Source: Callorhinchus milii (taxonomy: Eukaryota). From it: a DNA stretch of 64,000 nucleotides. Below the pieces are notes generated by a model, which was given only the letters and a program-made list of their open reading frames with translations, was not told the DNA's origin and searched no databases. The DNA lies in NCBI RefSeq assembly GCF_018977255.1, contig NW_024704742.1, positions 118,422,001 through 118,486,000 of the forward strand. Direction: 5' to 3'. The translations under genes were made by a program, and so were the position numbers. Positions 18,219 to 42,958 of this stretch are shown piece by piece; the stretch's first letter is position 1, and each line of letters starts with the position of its first letter.

Positions 18219-18670
18219 AGGTTAAGAAACCTGTCAACATTTAAAAAGGATCCATAGTATCCTTTTAAAAAAAAGACAGCTTTACTTCAACCAAGATTTT
18301 GTCTCTGATATTTTGGACATGCTTATATAATGTGAATGTAAAATAAAGGGCACATTTTACTCAATCTGATCATTGGAGGATTAGGTTTGTTTGGAAGGTG
18401 CTCATTATTTCTCATGCAAATGAACTTATGTAAAATATTAAGAAACTTTAGAGAAAATAAAATAAACTTATCAACGAGGGCATTTTTGAAAGACTAAAGA
18501 AAGGGAGGCTCATGCTGGAAACAGTGCTTTTCTCCATACTGGATTGTATCTTCAACCTGGTCTCATAACTTTGTATTTTGCTAAACATTCTGGGAAAAAT
18601 TAAGAGCACAAAATGATCCTACAGACTATCAACAAAGTGTTCTGTTGGAATCAACCAAATATCAGTTTAC

Positions 18671-18835
18671 CTTGTCAATGTTTATCAGAGGGAAGAGTTC
18701 CTGCACCTTCTCTGGACCAATGATAAACTGCTGTGTCACGTTCCAGTTTGCCCTTGTCATCTGATAATGAAATTCATCCACTCGGGTCGGAGTACAAGCA
18801 ATGCGGATACTGCCAGGCTGATGAAAGCTGACTGC
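18671..18835 (-). CDS. DMGDH: Dimethylglycine dehydrogenase exon 4
   Basis: caacag acceptor; [55 protein letters not shown]; gtaaac donor; 165 nt. Confidence 0.97.
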
Positions 18836-19854
18836 CTGTTGAAACAACCACAAAGTTAGAAAGTGCCTCAGTAGTTGAATTCTACTCAGTAGATGAATAC
18901 AGTCAATTCACTTTACAGTATATTCTATGAAGCGCTTTGAGACGTCTCAAAGACGTGATAAAGCACTATATCAAATACAAGGATTATTATTATGATGATG
19001 AATTCTTCCCTTTTGCTAAGGTTTTTGGGAACCACTTAAGAATTTTTCTGTTTAACTCTCCTGTCTTTTTCCTTTTTTCAGACAATCTTCTGCACAGTGC
19101 TGCGGATTAAAAGTTGTGGTCTGAAACTATTTTTAACTTTATATTTCATGAAATATTTGGGGGATTTGGGGTTGCAAATACTGCATGTATTTTCTTTAAT
19201 ACAAATCATACATGTTGCATTTCATATACACCGCCAATGTTAACATTTGTTATTAAAAGCAAAAGTTCCCACAAAATTCATAGAGTGGTGAATGTTGTTT
19301 CATCACACAGGGTCTCCGCAGTAGGTTTACTATTACACTATTAAAGGTTGCGACTGATCACTAATCCAACATTCAAAGTGCAATATAAACATTGTCAATC
19401 TTGTGATCTGAATTGATCCTGGCAAAGAGACGTAAGGGAACCCATTTCCAGGGTCAGTTTCAATTCAGTGATAATGCATTGTAAATGATCAGTTTCCATG
19501 GTGATTCAATGCCACGTTGTGCAAAAATGCACAGGACCATCATGAAGTTACTGTACAGAGTTCTTCCGATTTAAACAGGGCAGTTCCGCTCTATCATTAA
19601 GGATTTACGTGGAATTGGAAGAAACTAAATGATTTTTATGGGAGGGAATAGCCATGTTCTTACATGTTAGTATGATGCATATAGGACTCCCTGCGGGAAA
19701 TACACTTCACATTCCTGCCGCTATTCTTCGTATTTCAAGAAGCTTTTCCTGAAAATGTTTTTCAATTGGAATATTTGTTCATTCCATATTTACATCCCTA
19801 TAACCTTCAATACTATTCTCATGCTAATAGTTATCACCTCTGATCCTATCCTGT

Positions 19855-20160
19855 AGCCTGTAGCTCAGTGGTTAGAGCACTCGCTTTGCAAACGAGAGAT
19901 CTGGGTTCGATTCCCGGTAGGGTGAAACCTTGGGCAAGTTTCCTTATTCCACACGCCTGATAATAATCCCTCAAAAAAAAACAATAATAAATTGGTCACT
20001 TCAATCCACCACTGTTTGTGGGACACTGCTGTGTGCAATTGGCTGCCACATTTCGCCCACAAATAAACAGTCAATTCAATTTACAGTATATTCTGTGAAG
20101 CGCTTTGAGACGTCCAGAAGACATGAAAAGCACTATATCAAATGCAAGGATTATTATTGT
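19855..20160 (+). mobile_element. tRNA-Ala-derived SINE
   Basis: ctgtagctcagtggttagagcactcgctttgc...gttcgattccc; tail aaatgcaaggattattatt. Confidence 0.9.
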
Positions 20161-20225
20161 TATCTCACACAAAATGCTGCTGAAAATCTCATCCACACCT
20201 TTCTCACATTCTATTTTTTTTGGTC

Positions 20226-20651
20226 AGCCGGGTGTCTGACACATGCAGAAAACCATCACTGTGCTTAACAATATCCAAACCAAGCTGAGATTTCCATGCA
20301 TCCCACCTACACATGGAAATCGTTGAGGGACTGCTGGAGTCCAACCAGCTAAAACCGCATAGCTTTCCAGTGATGCCACGGTGTGGCAAGCTGCTTGTCC
20401 AGTTAGGACCGCTTCCCCTTTAGGGCTTTGGCTTGTAGGGTAAACAGGAGCTCAGTGGGTTGACTCCCTGCCACAGTGAGTCTGCCCTTCCAGGTCCTGC
20501 CAATGAGCGATGCTGTCATCAGCAGTGCCCTGGAATACTGAAGACCCACCTGGCTCAAGAACCGGACTATCGAGATCACCACAGAAGGCTCAATTCTGAC
20601 ATTCGTTGCCGGGCTTGTCACCTTGGAGCCAGTTCAGCTCCAAGGAGACCC
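20226..20651. repeat. Unclassified dispersed repeat, copy 2
   Basis: Colinear with 4756-5312; terminal hairpin at 20621-20645. Confidence 0.8.
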
Positions 20652-20654
20652 CGC

Positions 20655-21060
20655 TTCCGGTCTTCATTTCTCAAACGCACTCCTCATTGCTCTCCCCAGT
20701 TCCACCAACCACAAGGTCCAACTCATCCAAAACTAAGCCACCCGTATCCTCTCTCGTACCAAACTCTGTACGCCCGTTATTTCCCTATCCTCACCAGACT
20801 TCACTGGCTCTTAATTTCCGAAAGGATCAATTTCAAAATCCCTGACCTCAAGCTCAACCATCTTCCTTCCTCTCATGCCCCCCTCCTCTAATCCGCCCCC
20901 TACGCGCAGCTACCACAAGCCCCCTATCCTCCACGCCCCCTGCGCTGCATCATCGGTGACCGTGCCTTCAGCCACGATGCCAACCTCTGGAATTCCTCGC
21001 CTCAATCCCTCTCCCTCACTCCGCGTCTAAACACAACCGCTGTCAGTGCTCTGAGACACC
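20655..21060 (+). mobile_element. L2 LINE 3' fragment just upstream of the C12orf57 promoter
   Basis: KVQLIQN, PILTRLHWLLISERINFKI, RAFS...LWNS motifs with frameshifts. Confidence 0.75.
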
Positions 21061-21110
21061 ATCTCAAGTGAAGAAGGTTATGCAAATATATAGGGTACTG
21101 CGCTTTTGGA

Positions 21111-21111
<1 letters not shown>

Positions 21112-21138
<27 letters not shown>
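21112..21138 (+). repeat. (GT)n microsatellite at the edge of the C12orf57 CpG island
   Basis: About 13 GT units. Confidence 0.9.
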
Positions 21139-21139
<1 letters not shown>

Positions 21140-21142
<3 letters not shown>

Positions 21143-21475
21143 AGTGAACCCGGGGGGCGCTGCGTGTGCGAGAGATTGTGACCGCGCGGGGGCGCTGTGT
21201 GAGAGCGATAGTGACCGCGGGGGGGCGCTGTGTGTGGAGGTTCCCGCTATATCTGGGCGTTGTGGGCAGATTGGGGGCGGGTTCACGCCCAATTGGGCGT
21301 GTTTTTGTCGTCGAACAATTTTCGAGTTTCTTACGCAGTTTCAAACAAAAACCCCAGAAATGCTGCCGGGCTGATGGGTTGGGGCTATCTTTGGGCTCAG
21401 CGGTTGGTGGCGTTTGGGCTACAGGAGGACGCCTTGTAATCCTCTGGGGGCCGAGGCGGCAAAATGGCGGCGGCT
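21140..21475 (+). promoter_or_regulatory. CpG-island promoter of the nested C12orf57 gene
   Basis: CpG-dense; three 33-34 bp repeats with gggggcgctg core (21144, 21178, 21211); E2F-like ttcccgc 21241; inverted CCAAT and GC box 21269-21281; perfect palindrome acgcccaattgggcgt 21285-21300; YY1-type AAAATGGCGGC over the ATG. Confidence 0.7.
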
Positions 21476-21862
21476 CAACAACAGCAGCAGCAGCAACAAC
21501 AACAGCAGCAGCAGCCGCCGGGCCTGAGCCCCGAGCAGACGCGGGTGGTGTTGGCCGAGGTGATCAAGGCCTTCGGCTGCCCGGAGAACGCGGCGCGGCT
21601 GGAGGAGGCGCGGGACAACGCGTGTAACGACATGGGGAAGATGCTGCAGTTCGTGCTGCCCGTGGCCACCCAGATCCAGCAGGAGGTCATCAAGGCGTAC
21701 GGCTTCAGCAGCGACGGCGAGGGCGTGCTCAGGTTCGCCCGCATCATCAAGGCCTACGAGACCCAGGACCCCGAGATCGCCGCCATGTCCGGGAAGCTCA
21801 GGTCTCTCTTTCTGCCGCCCATGACGGCGCCTCCCCACAGCTCGAGCATCTCAGCCTCCTGA
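21464..21862 (+). CDS. C12orf57: Protein C10 (C12orf57/GRCC10 homolog), single exon, N-terminal Q13; nested antisense in DMGDH intron 3
   Basis: 132 aa ORF containing EARDNACNDMGKMLQFVLPVATQIQQEVIKAYGF..DGEGVL.FAR...QDPEIA..SGKL..LFLPPMT, recognised as near-identical to vertebrate C10; Kozak context aaaATGG; strong GC3 bias; no introns. Confidence 0.95.
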   Translation: MAAAQQQQQQQQQQQQQPPGLSPEQTRVVLAEVIKAFGCPENAARLEEARDNACNDMGKMLQFVLPVATQIQQEVIKAYGFSSDGEGVLRFARIIKAYETQDPEIAAMSGKLRSLFLPPMTAPPHSSSISAS

Positions 21863-22303
21863 CCCCACCCCCCATCCCACCCGGTCCGGCCCTGCACTGG
21901 GAGAGGGACAAGGACCAGAGAGAGAGAGACAACCAAGGACCTGAGGATATTGAACACTGGCTGAACCTCTTTCTCCCCCCCCACCAGGGTCAGATAAGCT
22001 CTGAATTGACATGATCCACCCCAATGCCTCTGGCCACCCGCTGCCTCCCCACCATCTCCTCCTCCTCCTCCAACTCCAACTCCAATTCCATTGCCAACTT
22101 CAACGTCTTGCATCTTCTGCCCGGCTTCTGCGCCTCGCCCTCACCCGCCAAGCTCTGCCCCGTTACTACACGTTGCATTCCAAGCTGTTGGTTGGTTGGG
22201 GTGATGGGCCGGGGGTGACCTTTTTGAGTGAGATTGGGGCGGTTTTGTGGTCTGGTAGAAGTAGACATGTGTTGTGTACGCCAGAAATGCTGGAACCTGT
22301 ATA

Positions 22304-22309
22304 AATAAA
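22304..22309 (+). terminator. Polyadenylation signal of C12orf57
   Basis: AATAAA about 440 nt after the stop codon, followed about 35 nt later by GU-rich tctgtgttattct. Confidence 0.65.
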
Positions 22310-22573
22310 CCTCTATTTCAGAACTAAGCCAAAGTGCCCAGTCTGTGTTATTCTGGTTCCACGTACAACGGCTTAAAATGTTTTCTCTAAAAGTATGACA
22401 AATTAATCACAATGAGTGTGATCACAGTTGGCATTCTAACCAACATAACCTTTATTTTCTTCATTGAGGCTATCTAAGGGTGTTCTCCTTTTCTGATAAC
22501 TGCCCGAGGGAAGTTTGAATCATCAATGTGCAGCACAAACATTACATACACATTACAATGGCTGGCATAGTTA

Positions 22574-22747
<174 letters not shown>

Positions 22748-36635: not shown

Positions 36636-37273
36636 ATTGCTACAGTCTGCTCCTACTCGCTGTCATTGCTGACACAGTGTAAACCTTTTCAATAAGCAGA
36701 GGAACAAACTGAAAGATCATTTCAAATCGAGCACATTTTATCACTTTGGACGGATCACCACAAAGGTGTTTGTACATTATTGGGTTTATTTTGGAATATA
36801 TTTATATTAGCAGCGGAGGCTCAAAGTGAATTGTCACATCGAGCACATTGGAAAATTATTGGTGGGTGTTTGTGAAACTTTCTTAATTATGATAGTTATT
36901 TAGAATCCTGCTGGTGATGTTTTTTTTTGCATATAATGCTTTTTAATTCACCCACTTTTTAATTTCTCTTTGACCGAGCCTTCAGCTCCCCTCTTGACTC
37001 TCTACCCCCTCCTCGCTCCCTCCCTTCCCTCCCCTCACCCTGACCATATCCCCCCTGCTCGGGTCCTGACCCAACTGTACAGCGCCTTGGGACGTCCTCC
37101 CGACGTGAAAGGCGCTCAATAAATGGAATCTTGTTGTAATTCTTTTGTGTAAACCTATTAATAGATTCACTGTTGATTTTTACAGTAGGAGTGGACCTCT
37201 TTAATTAGATCTGTTCTGTAATTTACTGCCTTGAATTTATCCGATTAAGATGTTATTACAAATGTTATTGCAG

Positions 37274-37406
37274 GGAATTTTGGAGCGTTTGGAAGCAGGA
37301 GAGATCGTTATTGGTGATGGCGGGTTTGTTTTTGCTCTGGAGAAGAGGGGATATGTCAAAGCAGGTCCCTGGACTCCAGAGGCAACAGTAGAGTATCCCG
37401 AGGCTG
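37274..37406 (+). CDS. BHMT: BHMT exon 2
   Basis: ttgcag acceptor; [44 protein letters not shown]; gtaagt donor; 133 nt. Confidence 0.98.
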
Positions 37407-37409
37407 GTA

Positions 37410-37785
37410 AGTCATGTAGCGTATTGATTAGAGCACTCGCCTCACAAGCGAGAGGACCCTGGTTCGATTCCCGGCCCGGGCAATACCTTAGGCAAGTTTC
37501 CTAACTCCACACGCTTCTGTTTACTTAGCTGTAAGTAGGAACCCGGTTGTTAGTCAATTGACGGATCGCTTTATGAGGGGAATAGATTCTTCAAAAATAA
37601 ATAATAATAAATTGGTCACTCAATCCACTACTTTCTGTGGGATACTGCTGTTCGCAATTGGCTTCCGCAATTCACCCACAAAATATACAGTCAATTCACT
37701 TTACAGTATAATCTGTGAAGCGCTTTGAGACTCTCGAAGATGCGATAAGGTGCTATATCAAATTTATATCAAATATTATTTTTAT
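37410..37785 (+). mobile_element. tRNA-derived SINE, longer subfamily, abutting the BHMT exon 2 donor
   Basis: Head agtcatgtagcgtattgattagagcactcgc...ggttcgattccc; extra segment gtaagtaggaacccggttgttagtc; related copies 26273-26607(-), 38757-39280(+), 39612-39915(+), 40435-40742(+). Confidence 0.85.
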
Positions 37786-38194
37786 GATGAGTCCATAAGC
37801 CAAGAGGAAAAACAGACAATCCATGCAAAATAAAATTCCGCTGCTAAAACAATCTTTTTCCTGCTGCATGATACAAATACTTCTCTTACCTAGCATTGTA
37901 TTGCCAATAGCAGTAACTTCAATTACTTAAATTAGTGGATCAAAGGAAAAATCAGGGTATCAGTGATCCTATCGCGGACTACTTATAGCTGTTAATCCTC
38001 GGCTGGATGCTTCTTTATATTGTGTAAATGTGATCTGCATCAAGGTTGTACATTCAGAAGCGATCATTTGACTAGAACATACTGTATCCAGCAGGCTGCT
38101 TAAATATTGGTGGTAGGTGGTGACATTTGTGTCTGTAAAATGCCTTTACCAGCTGTTTAGTGTCCTAGACTTGTTTTGTTTGTTTAATTTTCAG

Positions 38195-38313
38195 TAAGAC
38201 AACTGCACCGTGAATTCCTCAGAGCAGGCTCTACAGTTATGCAGACTTTCACCTTCTATGCTAGTGATGACAAGTTGAAGAATAGAGGAAACATTGCAGG
38301 TCAAAAGTTCTCA
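38195..38313 (+). CDS. BHMT: BHMT exon 3
   Basis: tttcag acceptor; [40 protein letters not shown]; gtaagt donor; 119 nt. Confidence 0.97.
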
Positions 38314-40123
38314 GTAAGTCTGCTTTCCAATTTAGATTTCATATTTGAGCAAATAGTTTCAATGTACCTCTAGTGACGTATTGTGACGTCTTACAGGCAA
38401 CTCAACTGATGGCTGTGAACTGCTTGTTAAGTGGGGCCACTTGACAGGTGTAAAATCACAAATCATTATTGACTTTCTAATAAAATTGCAAATCCTCCTT
38501 GAGCTTCAATTTTAAAACTAAATCAATCAAGGTATTGGGGCTACACCAGAGTTAAACGTGGGAATGTACAGAACAGGAAAAGAGAATTGCAATCCCTCTG
38601 GCTCGTCTCAAAGAACTTCCTGATCATTCGGGTTCCTTGGATGAAGGCAAGTGCATTGGACCACTTTATCTCTTGTTTTACCTCATGCTGAGAACTGCTA
38701 TTATTCAGAGAGTAATACTGAGAAGTATTATTATTATAATTAGTATTACTGGTATCGGAATCCTGTATCTTAGTGTTTAGTGCACTCACTTCGCAAGCGA
38801 GAGGATCTAGGTTCGATTCCCTGCAGGGCGAAACGTTGGACAAGTTTCCTTACTCCACACGTCTCTGTTCACCTAAAATCATAGAATTATACAGCACAGA
38901 AGCAGGCTATTTGGCCCATCTTGTCTGTGCTGGCTCCTTGAAAAGAACTATCTAAATCAATCCCACTCCCGTGCTCGCTCCCCATTGCCCTCCAAACTTG
39001 TCCTCCACAAATAATTACCTACTTCTCTCTTAAAAGTTGTTTCAAGAGAGCAATAGATAGGCGGATCGCTTTTCCGGGAGTAATAATATCTTAAAAAATA
39101 AATAAATAATAAAAATTTGGTCACTTCAATCTACGACTCTTTGCGGGACACTGATGTGCGCAATTGGCTGCCGCGTTTCGCCCACAAAATATAAGTCAAT
39201 TCACTTTGCAATATATTTTGTAAAGAGCTTTGAGACATCTCAAAGATGTGATAAGGATTAGTGCAAGGATTATTATTATTATCATCATCCTTGAAAGAAT
39301 GGGTATTGAATGCGATGATGCCCATAAATTATTTTATCTTTGTCCGGCAATTAAATATTTTAAATATAAAGTTCACACGTGTTGCAAGAACGGTTGTGAT
39401 CTATGATAACATGGCAATGTGGTGTGCTTTCTGTCGTATGCTATTTCAAGATCCCTTCTTGGAAGCGATTATGAAATTAACTTCCAAGTTATCGGTGCTC
39501 AGAACTTTAACATAAATCAAACCTTCTCCAGAACAAAACAGTAGGAATACCTTATCTTGCAATATGACCTCTCACTCTGAAACTATATGGAGTCATTTTA
39601 TTAATAATCTGACAGGGTAAAACTTTAGGCAAGCTTCCTTGCTCTACATGCCTCAGTTTAACTAGCAGTAAGTAGGAACTCAGTTGTTAATCCATTGTTG
39701 GATTGCTTTCCAAGGGTAATAATCTCTTCAAAAAAAAATAATCATTTGGTCATTCAATTCCTTACTGTTTGTGGGACTCTAATGTGCACAATTGGCTGCC
39801 GAGTTTCAGCCTCAAAATGTACAGTCAATTCACTGTACAGTATATTCTGTGAAACACTTTGAGATGTCTCAACAATGTGATGAGGCGCTATATCAAATGC
39901 AAGGATTATTATTGTTGTCTTTCTGAATCCAGCATAAACATCTGCATGAACAAACTATTGTGAAAGATTTCATTTAAAAATTGTGTCTAAATGTTCAAAC
40001 TAAATGATCAACCTGGATCAGTTATTATATTTCTTGATTTTTCAGCTCCAGGTGAATTATTTATTAAATCAAAAGTGTTTATGCCGGAGATCTAAAAAGT
40101 AGCATAACTTTTATCCCTTTCAG

Positions 40124-40315
40124 GGCCAAAGTGTGAATGAAGCTGCATGTGATATTGCTCGGGAGGTGGCCAACGAAGGGGATGCATTGGTTGCTGGAGG
40201 AGTCTCTCAAACTCCAGCCTACCTCAGCTGTAAGAGTCAGTCTGAAGTGAAGGAAATCTTTAGGAAACAGCTGGAAGTCTTTGTCAAGAAGGATGTGGAC
40301 TTCATGATTGCTGAG
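40124..40315 (+). CDS. BHMT: BHMT exon 4
   Basis: tttcag acceptor; [31 protein letters not shown]...VDFMIAE; gtaaat donor; 192 nt. Confidence 0.98.
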
Positions 40316-41062
40316 GTAAATGATCCAACCTGGTCTTCTCTACATTTAACTGGATTTCTGAATGGTCACTACTTTTATATAGAACTGTATAAATGTTTGT
40401 ATTATCAATATGTTCAGAATTTGTACCATATTCAGAGTCCCGTAGCGTAATGGTTAGCGCACTCAGCTCGCAAGTGAGAGGATCCAGGTTCAATTCCCGG
40501 GCGGGGCGAAACCTTAGGCTAGTTTCCACATATCTCTGTTTACCGAGCAGTGAGAGGGAATCTGGTTGTTAATTGATAGGTGGATTATTTTCCAGGGGTA
40601 ATAATCCCTAAAAAAAACATTTGGTCACTCAATCCACGTCTGTTTGTGGGATACTGATGTGTGCAATTGGCTGCCATGGTTCGCCCACAAAATACACAGT
40701 CAATCTACAATATCAAATGCCAGGATTATTATTATTATTATTTCAGAGCAAACAGAATTTGACAACTTCTTAAGTACAGTTTTAATTTTAAAGTGGGTAA
40801 TTTTTATAACCACAAAAAAGACAGGAAACTGCAATTCAAAGTCTTTCCAACGTGAAAAGACACCTAAGGATTAATATATATATATATAAATCATTGATAT
40901 AGATCAAATATCATTGATGTGATCTATATCAATGTTTCTGAAGGGAAACCATATGAGCTACCATTTTGTCATGAGCAAGATTAGCTTGAATTTGTCTTAA
41001 GTCCAAAACTCTGCTTGTTAAGTGGCAGGCTTGATAATCATGTATTCTGCTATCTTTCACAG

Positions 41063-41210
41063 TACTACGAGCATGTGGAAGAAGCAGTGTGGGCAGTTGA
41101 AGTTTTAAAGGAATCTGGGAAACCAGTTGCCGCCACCCTATGTATTGGTCCAGAGGGTGATCTGAAAGGAGTTTCACCTGGGGATTGTGCAATCAGGCTG
41201 ACCAAGGCTG
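41063..41210 (+). CDS. BHMT: BHMT exon 5
   Basis: tcacag acceptor; [49 protein letters not shown]; gtgagg donor; 148 nt. Confidence 0.98.
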
Positions 41211-42487
41211 GTGAGGCACTTTCTCCAGTTTATTTAGGAACATAAAGCAGTTCAAAATCACTGTTGCTGAAAAGCGATCCTTTAGATCCTAAGGCCAAAA
41301 AAAAGATAACTGTTAAGAGTTTTTTCTAGAAGAATAAAATAATGCATTCAAATTGTCAGCGCAAACCATGAAACACCTCCCACTTAGGTTACCCAGTGCC
41401 ATTATCAGCCTCTGCCAACCCAAATACAAAATGGACCAAATGCGGTGGTATTTTCTCCACTGGGCCTGAACATCACATCATCTCTGAATGTACCAATGCT
41501 GGTGACTACAACACCAACAATTTAAAAACAAGCCTTATTACTTGAGAGTGGCCATCCTGAGACTAAGCACTTCACTTTATGCTATTATTGGTTATTTGGT
41601 CTTTCAAAGTCCATGGCTAAAAATGGTAGAACTTTTTTTTCCCTCTCCCCCCACGATCAAGTTTCTTTCATTCAGTTCACTTACCATTCCCTGGCTGAGG
41701 GTGAAAGGAAAAGTGTAAGCTGACTACTGGAATCATGAAAGCCTGACTCAACATATTTATTTTTAACTTTCTGTTCACACGTGAAAGCGCTGATTTATGT
41801 TTGACGGTTCCTCAGTGGCACAGGTTGGATCAAAAGCTCCTTGTGGAGGATTGCAGGGATGAATCAGTGCCTTAGAACTTTATGCCTACATAATGCAGTA
41901 ATTACACGTTACAGTATGCCATATGAAGCACTTTAAGACATCCTCCCAATGTGAAAGGTGCTATATCACATGCAAGTATGTGTGCAGCACAAAGCTAATT
42001 TACAATCCTCTTCAGGGTCAGATTAAGGAACTTTTTGTTTTGTTGGGTAATAGAAAGAAACCTTGAAGGTGGAGTTTAAGTAAACCACAACAACAACAAA
42101 TTATATTTGTATAGCACCTTTTATGTCAGGAGGATGCCCCAAAGCGCTGGACAATCGGAATTTGGACACAAGCTGGTGGTTGGGATCAGGAGGGGTGGAG
42201 GGCAGGGAGGGTAGGGTTAGGAAGGTGGCCAAAGGCACAGGTGAAGAGGAGGGTATAGAGGCATGCCTCGAAGGAGGCAAGGGAGGGGGCAAGGTGAAGG
42301 GACTATGGGATGGAGTTCCAAAGGGTAGGGGAAGAGAGGCTGAAGGCCCAGTCACTAATGATGGGGTGGGCCAGGCGGGAGACAGGGAGCAGCCAATCAA
42401 TTGTTCAGCCTCGTTGTACTGGTTTTCTTAAGCAACATGTTATTCAGTCTTTTGTGTTCTTAAGAGTTTAAATTATTGTTTTTATAG

Positions 42488-42670
42488 GTGCTCAGATTGT
42501 TGGAGTGAACTGCCATTTTGACTATGCCACTAGTCTCAAAACTATGAAGCTTATGAAGGAAGGTTTAGATGCTGCAAAACTCAAAGCACATCTGATGGTG
42601 CAGCCTGTGGCTTTCCATACACCTGATTGTAACAGCCAGGGATTTATTGATCTTCCAGAGTTTCCTTTTG
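42488..42670 (+). CDS. BHMT: BHMT exon 6 (Zn-ligand Cys in GVNCHF)
   Basis: tatag acceptor; [27 protein letters not shown]...FIDLPEFPF; gtaaga donor; 183 nt. Confidence 0.98.
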
Positions 42671-42958
42671 GTAAGATTTTGTTCCTTAGATTGACATTTT
42701 AATATGACAGTTTGTTATTGCTTTTACATGGAAAGTATGTACAGTTCTTTACAACTGAGCAGTATAACATGATTATCCTTCACGACCGGAAACATTACTG
42801 AACTTGACAGAATATTTGGGCAAGCATAATTGCAAACTTGGTAAAGCAAAATTTCTAGCCAGATTTGATACTAAACCTGGGATAGAGACAGAGCTGAAAA
42901 TTAAGTAACTTAAAAACTGGATCGTGTGACATAATACTTTTATTTTGTTTTGAAAAAG

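Follow-up and report, generated by a model that had tools for sequence, protein, structure and literature searches.

Background

The gene analysed here has its closest described counterpart in the Temtamy syndrome gene, C12orf57 in human and Grcc10 in mouse, with which it shares the PF14974 family and an orthologous lineage. Human C12orf57 has three exons, and the mammalian product, C10, has been reported in a preprint to bind the autoinhibitory region of CAMK4 and to slow CAMK4 dephosphorylation (PMC11838199). The human gene has U7 206 bp upstream of it (PMC9402729). In the elephant shark Callorhinchus milii the C10 core is ~81% identical to that of a mammalian C12orf57 orthologue, but the gene has one coding exon and not three, is found inside DMGDH and not beside RNU7-1, and has an N-terminal glutamine tract, which takes a shorter form in sharks and rays.

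Two described classes of retrogene are also comparable. Orphans are rare among mammalian retrogenes, with 10 families described of which 9 have CpG-island promoters (PMC4772013), and with 25 candidates given for human (PMC3548309). The elephant-shark gene resembles orphan retrogenes such as RNF113 in being single-exon and conserved, in having a CpG-island promoter and multi-exon orthologues in outgroups, and in having no parent in the assembly (PMC3548309; PMC4772013); it differs from them in that the parental region is, it seems, unassembled in C. milii, which leaves loss of the parent a possibility. The second class is that of expressed retrogenes with novel CpG-island promoters, such islands accounting for 35-52% of the novel promoters of retrocopies in human and mouse (PMC4772013). 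Here the likeness lies in an intact ORF and an island that is not common to the main start of another annotated gene, whereas in C. milii the island contains a transposon-like module of dispersed occurrence and seems to give rise to an alternative host transcript.

Nested genes are already a known kind, as are orphan retrogenes and retrogenes that have CpG-island promoters, and the C10 copy is well supported in its anatomy as a retrogene, possibly an orphan. No paper on a C12orf57 retrogene, on this C. milii gene or on the missing block was found in the open-access literature. Most probably a spliced C12orf57 mRNA was retroposed into intron 3 of DMGDH, and the copy is driven today by a CpG-island promoter that fires in both directions.

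The C10 coding unit and its host gene

The coding unit and the first exons of the host gene are given below in positions of the window, the whole stretch of 64,000 nucleotides that was analysed.

21464..21862, + strand: CDS of C10/C12orf57, 132 aa, a single exon with an uninterrupted ORF
21863..22335 (end approximate), + strand: inferred 3' UTR of C10, single copy in the assembly
22304..22309, + strand: AATAAA poly(A) signal, 286 bp from DMGDH exon 3
31343-31212, - strand: DMGDH exon 1
29029-28853, - strand: DMGDH exon 2
22595..22693, - strand: DMGDH exon 3, then a GC donor
18668..18835, - strand: DMGDH exon 4, whose lower end is a tblastn estimate

An earlier note on this DNA, made from the sequence alone, had described an uninterrupted 132-aa ORF with a conserved C10 core, followed by an AATAAA and a GU element and lacking a poly(A) tract or an obvious target-site duplication, and each of these statements was confirmed. 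Residues 21-122 match the Pfam model PF14974 (P_C10) with an E-value of 3.8e-40 and 136.6 bits against a cut-off of 27, the match covering model positions 1-102 of 103; the N-terminal tract consists of 13 glutamines, and GC3 is 0.91 in the ORF against 0.45 in the host DMGDH. A GU-rich stretch at ~22343-22359 lies about 35-50 bp 3' of the AATAAA. The hexamer alone is no better than chance because the 3.4-kb locus holds 6 AWTAAA matches against 3.35 expected; a GU-rich downstream element is not copied along with an mRNA. No genomic A-run was seen 3' of the AATAAA at the locus, and of 26 repeat families the 20 largest include no direct repeat flanking the unit. The poly(A) tail and target-site duplication that mark a young L1-type processed copy are thus both wanting, and a FLOT1-type control pseudogene likewise has no A-run in the stretch examined. 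A 14-of-15 direct repeat (21351 / 22278) was rejected as a target duplication, as the copy at 22278 lies ahead of the poly(A) signal and is not preceded by an A-run.

The host exons are 96-100% identical to Callorhinchus milii DMGDH where cleanly aligned. DMGDH intron 3 spans 18836-22594 (3759 bp) with GC-AG ends (22594 / 18836), and a GT-AG alternative 4 bases away would preserve the frame at the cost of one changed residue. The entire C10 unit lies within this intron on the opposite strand and is therefore nested antisense, its poly(A) signal falling within a base of the distance of about 285 bp from DMGDH exon 3 that the note had given. The note's claim of opposed, overlapping transcription units stands for the DMGDH pre-mRNA but not for the mature messages, as none of DMGDH exons 1-9 overlaps the C10 unit. 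Elsewhere in the window, BHMT-type exons (37235-42699, +) are placed head-to-head with DMGDH, with GC-rich sequence at ~30-36 kb between and around the BHMT-type and DMGDH starts. A tRNA-Ala-like match at 19854-19925 (+) is probably the head of a tRNA-derived SINE, because similar sequence recurs at other loci.

The exact C10 protein is absent from a collection of 15 billion proteins, and no Callorhinchus C10 was present in the best 120 of 320 protein matches, although DMGDH models of the species were present in the public data; the gene may not be called by the public annotation of C. milii. No RNA run holding words of the C10 locus was found among the sequencing runs listed. Nine runs guessed to be RNA (64-84% of the words) were rejected as evidence of expression, as they would equally match the mRNA of a near-identical parent, two runs with other organism labels and word shares of 0.04-0.05 were set aside, and a bacterial promoter scan of the locus was discarded as not applicable.

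Loss of introns and change of location

Two ancestral intron positions fall within the coding sequence.

21545..21547, + strand: codon V28, the site of ancestral intron 1, which the C10 ORF lacks (isoform break points)
21722..21724, + strand: codon G87, the site of ancestral intron 2, which the C10 ORF lacks (insertions after E86)

These positions were read from the break points of isoforms in a protein alignment of 23 rows and not from orthologue DNA. A predicted catshark protein (P0123), an isoform from coelacanth (P0135) and three records from mammals (P0076, P0080, P0087) diverge exactly before V28, whilst in-frame insertions follow E86 in 7 bird records and 1 mammal record of the 22 aligned with the window protein. 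In white shark one isoform starts at an internal methionine, which is consistent with an alternative first exon. On this alignment intron 1 is supported in a shark, and intron 2 only in amniotes (birds and one mammal). The ORF in the window crosses both positions in frame without a break, which agrees with the retroposed origin proposed in the earlier note; its statement that human C12orf57 is multi-exon likewise holds, given the three exons reported (PMC11838199).

The location of the gene has also changed. As a proxy for location, the length of the sequence carrying each protein was used as a chromosome tag, which assumes that both records come from one assembly. By this measure C10 and DMGDH are on separate sequences in 16 of the 19 elasmobranchs (small unplaced scaffolds in 2 of the 16) and in all three bony vertebrates compared (coelacanth, reedfish and bichir). 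The other three comprise two ray cases with shared records and Mobula birostris, in which the lengths for C10 and DMGDH are the same; the accession numbers of the two in Mobula birostris are about 1200 apart, and this spacing suggests distant positions on one chromosome. In a tree of 29 rows the C. milii C10 protein falls inside the cartilaginous-fish clade with support of 98/98. Because the locations differ elsewhere and the protein lies inside this clade, the nested position is derived in the holocephalan line. The location is thus not ancestral, and outgroups in which both it and the intronless state were ancestral, the outcome that the note had named as counting against its reading, were not found. 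No U7 gene lies beside the C10 copy within 19.5-23.5 kb. In Mustelus asterias one identical C10-like protein occurs on two sequences, neither of them the DMGDH chromosome, which is possibly a separate duplication (P0121).

The parental gene and an apparently missing block of the assembly

C10 was found once in the 992-Mb assembly, by a protein search and by a profile search down to an E-value of 1. The search for an intron-containing parent that the earlier note had asked for thus yielded none in the assembly.

The neighbourhood of C12orf57 on human 12p13 presumably comprises GAPDH, TPI1, EMG1, ATN1, PHB2, enolase and U7. The GAPDH and TPI1 families each gave 0 matches in the assembly, intact EMG1 was not found in it, ATN1 was not found, with the atrophin family represented only by a RERE-type gene, and the best genome match to U7 reached 25.9 bits, below the cut-off of 34. 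The assembly does hold one classical enolase gene and one PHB2-type gene, the latter on contig C11 and adjoining a PDE6D-type exon; the names RERE, PHB2 and PDE6D in C. milii are tentative ones given from sequence. As to sensitivity, the same search recovered exon pieces of 26-80 residues of other genes. Neither of two candidate parental sites was retained, the atrophin contig C287 being RERE-type with no C10 remnant (best E-value 1.7, 80 of 84 kb covered) and the PHB2-type locus on C11 having no C10 remnant in the 20 kb around it (best E-value 0.63).

GAPDH, TPI1 and EMG1 are essential, and because they are missing too, the parental block most likely is unassembled or was withheld; it seems to be a GC-rich block that is missing from the C. 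milii assembly. The absence of the parent therefore means little, and by our own estimate its loss is somewhat the less probable outcome and its survival somewhat the more probable.

Processed copies of EMG1-type and FLOT1-type genes are present in the assembly, from which it follows that retroposition has happened in the C. milii lineage. EMG1 and FLOT1 occur there only as such broken copies. The EMG1 piece (G000:C1:38857090-38857319, - strand; L004 1400-1629) is degenerate and frameshifted, and a homologue search with it found none, whilst the flotillin copy (L026, G000:C12:4768747-4769283, - strand), which we take to be FLOT1-type, is near full length with stops.

Conservation of the protein and retention of CpG

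The C10 protein keeps 58 of the 59 columns that are invariant in 27 orthologues (29 aligned minus two aberrant isoforms), the exception being K113R, so the note's description of an intact and conserved protein is upheld. It has 2 private residues in 104 core sites, as compared with 0-2 per row in 18 elasmobranch rows. Its identity to each of nine bony vertebrates ranges from 0.76 to 0.83, where the elasmobranchs average 0.76-0.86, and falls below the elasmobranch mean in 6 of the 9 and below the elasmobranch minimum in 2 of the 9; a slight excess of divergence over the elasmobranchs is possible from these alignments.

The ratio of synonymous C3-G1 CpG to T3-G1 is 19:0 in the C10 ORF. It is 15:68 in the DMGDH host exons (Fisher p 9e-12 against the C10 ORF), 9:10 in the broken FLOT1-type processed copy (p 4e-4) and 64:23 in the RERE-type exons on a GC-rich contig (p 0.011). 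Such zero decay of CpG would fit either an unmethylated locus or a very recent insertion. In a host repeat to the left of the island CpG retention was 4 vs 3, with only 2 homologous stretches available. Judged from its sequence, the C10 copy looks functional.

The CpG island and the upstream module

Three features make up the upstream region.

21141..21862, no strand: CpG island over the promoter region and CDS
21129..21236, + strand: three GC-rich repeat units, 33-35 bp apart
21254..21431, + strand: degenerate dispersed element, a candidate promoter module, with 26 dispersed matches of 86-100%

The GC content is 0.60 and the CpG o/e 1.01 in 21140-21463, and 0.66 and 0.87 in the CDS, against 0.43 and 0.36 in the whole window; the 3' UTR, with an o/e of 0.37, is outside the island. 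An island of the gene's own, as the earlier note had it, is therefore confirmed, and with the synonymous CpGs of the ORF it has the hypomethylated look that the note had drawn from retained CpGs. The promoter motifs of the note fared less simply, since a GC box and a CCAAT box are present but both belong to a dispersed repeat-like module. The 323 bases 5' of the ATG have at least 45 matches elsewhere in the genome, 19 of them in tandem arrays and 26 dispersed.

Tandem arrays of the GC-rich unit occur at 4 other places (C4, C23:7.186 Mb, C55 and C6), and the one array that was read (L037, G000:C4:3481256-3482052) is long and lies directly 5' of a CpG-island gene start, presumably that of PAXBP1. 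The unit resembles a CTCF site, and a count of CTCF-like patterns (4 matches vs 0.15 expected) was discarded as circular, the pattern having been shaped after the sequence was viewed.

The dispersed element ends ~30 bp 5' of the C10 start codon and has a conserved core of 40 bp, which combines a GC box with a CCAAT box that is palindromic. Sixteen loci were read, representing 17 of the 26 dispersed copies, 15 of them with the exact core, and 13 of these 15 abut a CpG-island-like 300-mer (GC at least 0.5, CpG o/e at least 0.6) as against 3.2% of background 300-mers, an association that may be inflated by survival bias, with methylated copies dropping out of the search. The copies have further degenerate blocks in common over about 200-250 bp, and shared ends are visible in some, such as L051, and degenerate in the window. 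From this structure the element is probably an old non-autonomous DNA transposon, possibly a MITE of the hAT type, a class marked by terminal inverted repeats and an 8-bp target duplication. In L051 itself a pair of copies stands back to back, with a short GC-rich centre between them. No paper on the 40-bp core motif was found in a search of the open-access literature. The element may have been there before the C10 copy entered the host intron, have come in afterwards or have been carried along with the parental transcript.

An alternative first exon of DMGDH

A further feature of intron 3 belongs to the host.

20847..20876, - strand: first exon of DMGDH isoform X2, 10 coding codons, annotated (P0290 / XP_042190727.1)

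The predicted model XP_042190727.1 has 750 aa, with 10 novel N-terminal residues that map to 20876-20847, and the exon, which has a GT donor at 20846, is joined to DMGDH exon 4. The X2 product would be without the first 136 residues of DMGDH, a stretch that takes in the targeting peptide and the GGG motif encoded by exon 2. The exon lies in host-intron sequence ~270 bp from the C10 CpG island and points away from it, beginning inside a repeat fragment. A first exon in this position would call for a promoter just to the right, where the C10 island begins, and as part of a predicted gene model it is the best locus-specific hint of promoter activity, one that could not be explained by the mRNA of the parent. 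DMGDH isoforms of 716 aa that begin in exon 4 are also found in two sharks without a nested C10.

Origin of the nested gene

Most probably a spliced C12orf57 mRNA was reverse-transcribed and inserted antisense into DMGDH intron 3 in the holocephalan lineage, after its split from sharks and rays. Transcription of the copy would start at a CpG-island promoter of its own, which arose from or next to the old transposon-like GC-box/CCAAT module. This promoter would fire both ways, the + strand yielding the C10 mRNA and the - strand a minor DMGDH transcript truncated at the N-terminal end. The C10 mRNA would end at the AATAAA short of DMGDH exon 3, so that only pre-mRNAs would overlap. The product would be an ordinary C10 protein, probably acting like the mammalian one, a function transferred by orthology only.

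A more far-reaching version of this origin is speculative and on the whole unlikely to hold. In it C12orf57 would be gone for good from the U7-linked locus in chimaeras, leaving an orphan retrogene whose promoter came from a transposon-derived GC-box/CCAAT module co-opted at dozens of elephant-shark CpG-island promoters, with a truncated DMGDH, without targeting peptide and first flavin-binding segment, as a by-product.

Decidedly improbable, but the best of the alternatives, is that the gene is a young, intact processed copy with little or no function, that its three-exon parent sits in the unassembled GC-rich block, and that the CpG-rich upstream sequence was carried along from a parental transcript with an upstream start. 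The missing parental block, the mere 2 private substitutions and the absence of the protein from public protein sets would all be expected of such a copy, as would upstream modules typical of other promoters in the C. milii genome, and inheritance of a promoter from the parent is a described route (PMC4772013). The GC3 of 0.91 in a host of 0.45, together with the zero CpG decay, is also compatible with it; the high GC3 is no proof of old age, because a recent copy of a GC-rich parent would show the same. Against youth, there is no A-run or flanking duplication, a point blunted by the control pseudogene, which lacks an A-run too, and a GU-rich element follows the poly(A) signal, whilst the alternative DMGDH exon implies promoter activity at the site.

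That the introns were lost in place, by retro-conversion, and the original gene then moved as DNA with its promoter would account for the complete housekeeping-type promoter upstream, the lack of retroposition scars and the single C10 in the assembly, but it needs two rare events, and no neighbour such as U7 came along in a unit of only ~1.2 kb, so that this route is very unlikely. An assembly artefact or contamination, which a GC-rich island in an AT-rich intron might bring to mind, is scarcely credible, as the window is without any N, the protein groups with cartilaginous fishes, and at least half of the sampled words of 21380-22345 are present in 14 of the 24 listed runs labelled as the same organism (best share 0.95; the 14 come from 4 studies, one of which may be the assembly's own source).

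Significance

Retroposition of C12orf57 into DMGDH, the origin preferred here, would be a clean example of relocation by this route of a human disease gene in a slowly evolving vertebrate, and of a gene that is apparently missing from the public protein sets of C. milii. In an assembly that lacks GAPDH, TPI1 and further members of the parental block, finding a gene just once is weak evidence of gene loss or of replacement of the parent. The conserved repeat on the promoter side is a separate lead. If the parent is gone, C12orf57 would be a gene that needs neither its introns nor the U7-linked promoter in order to work.
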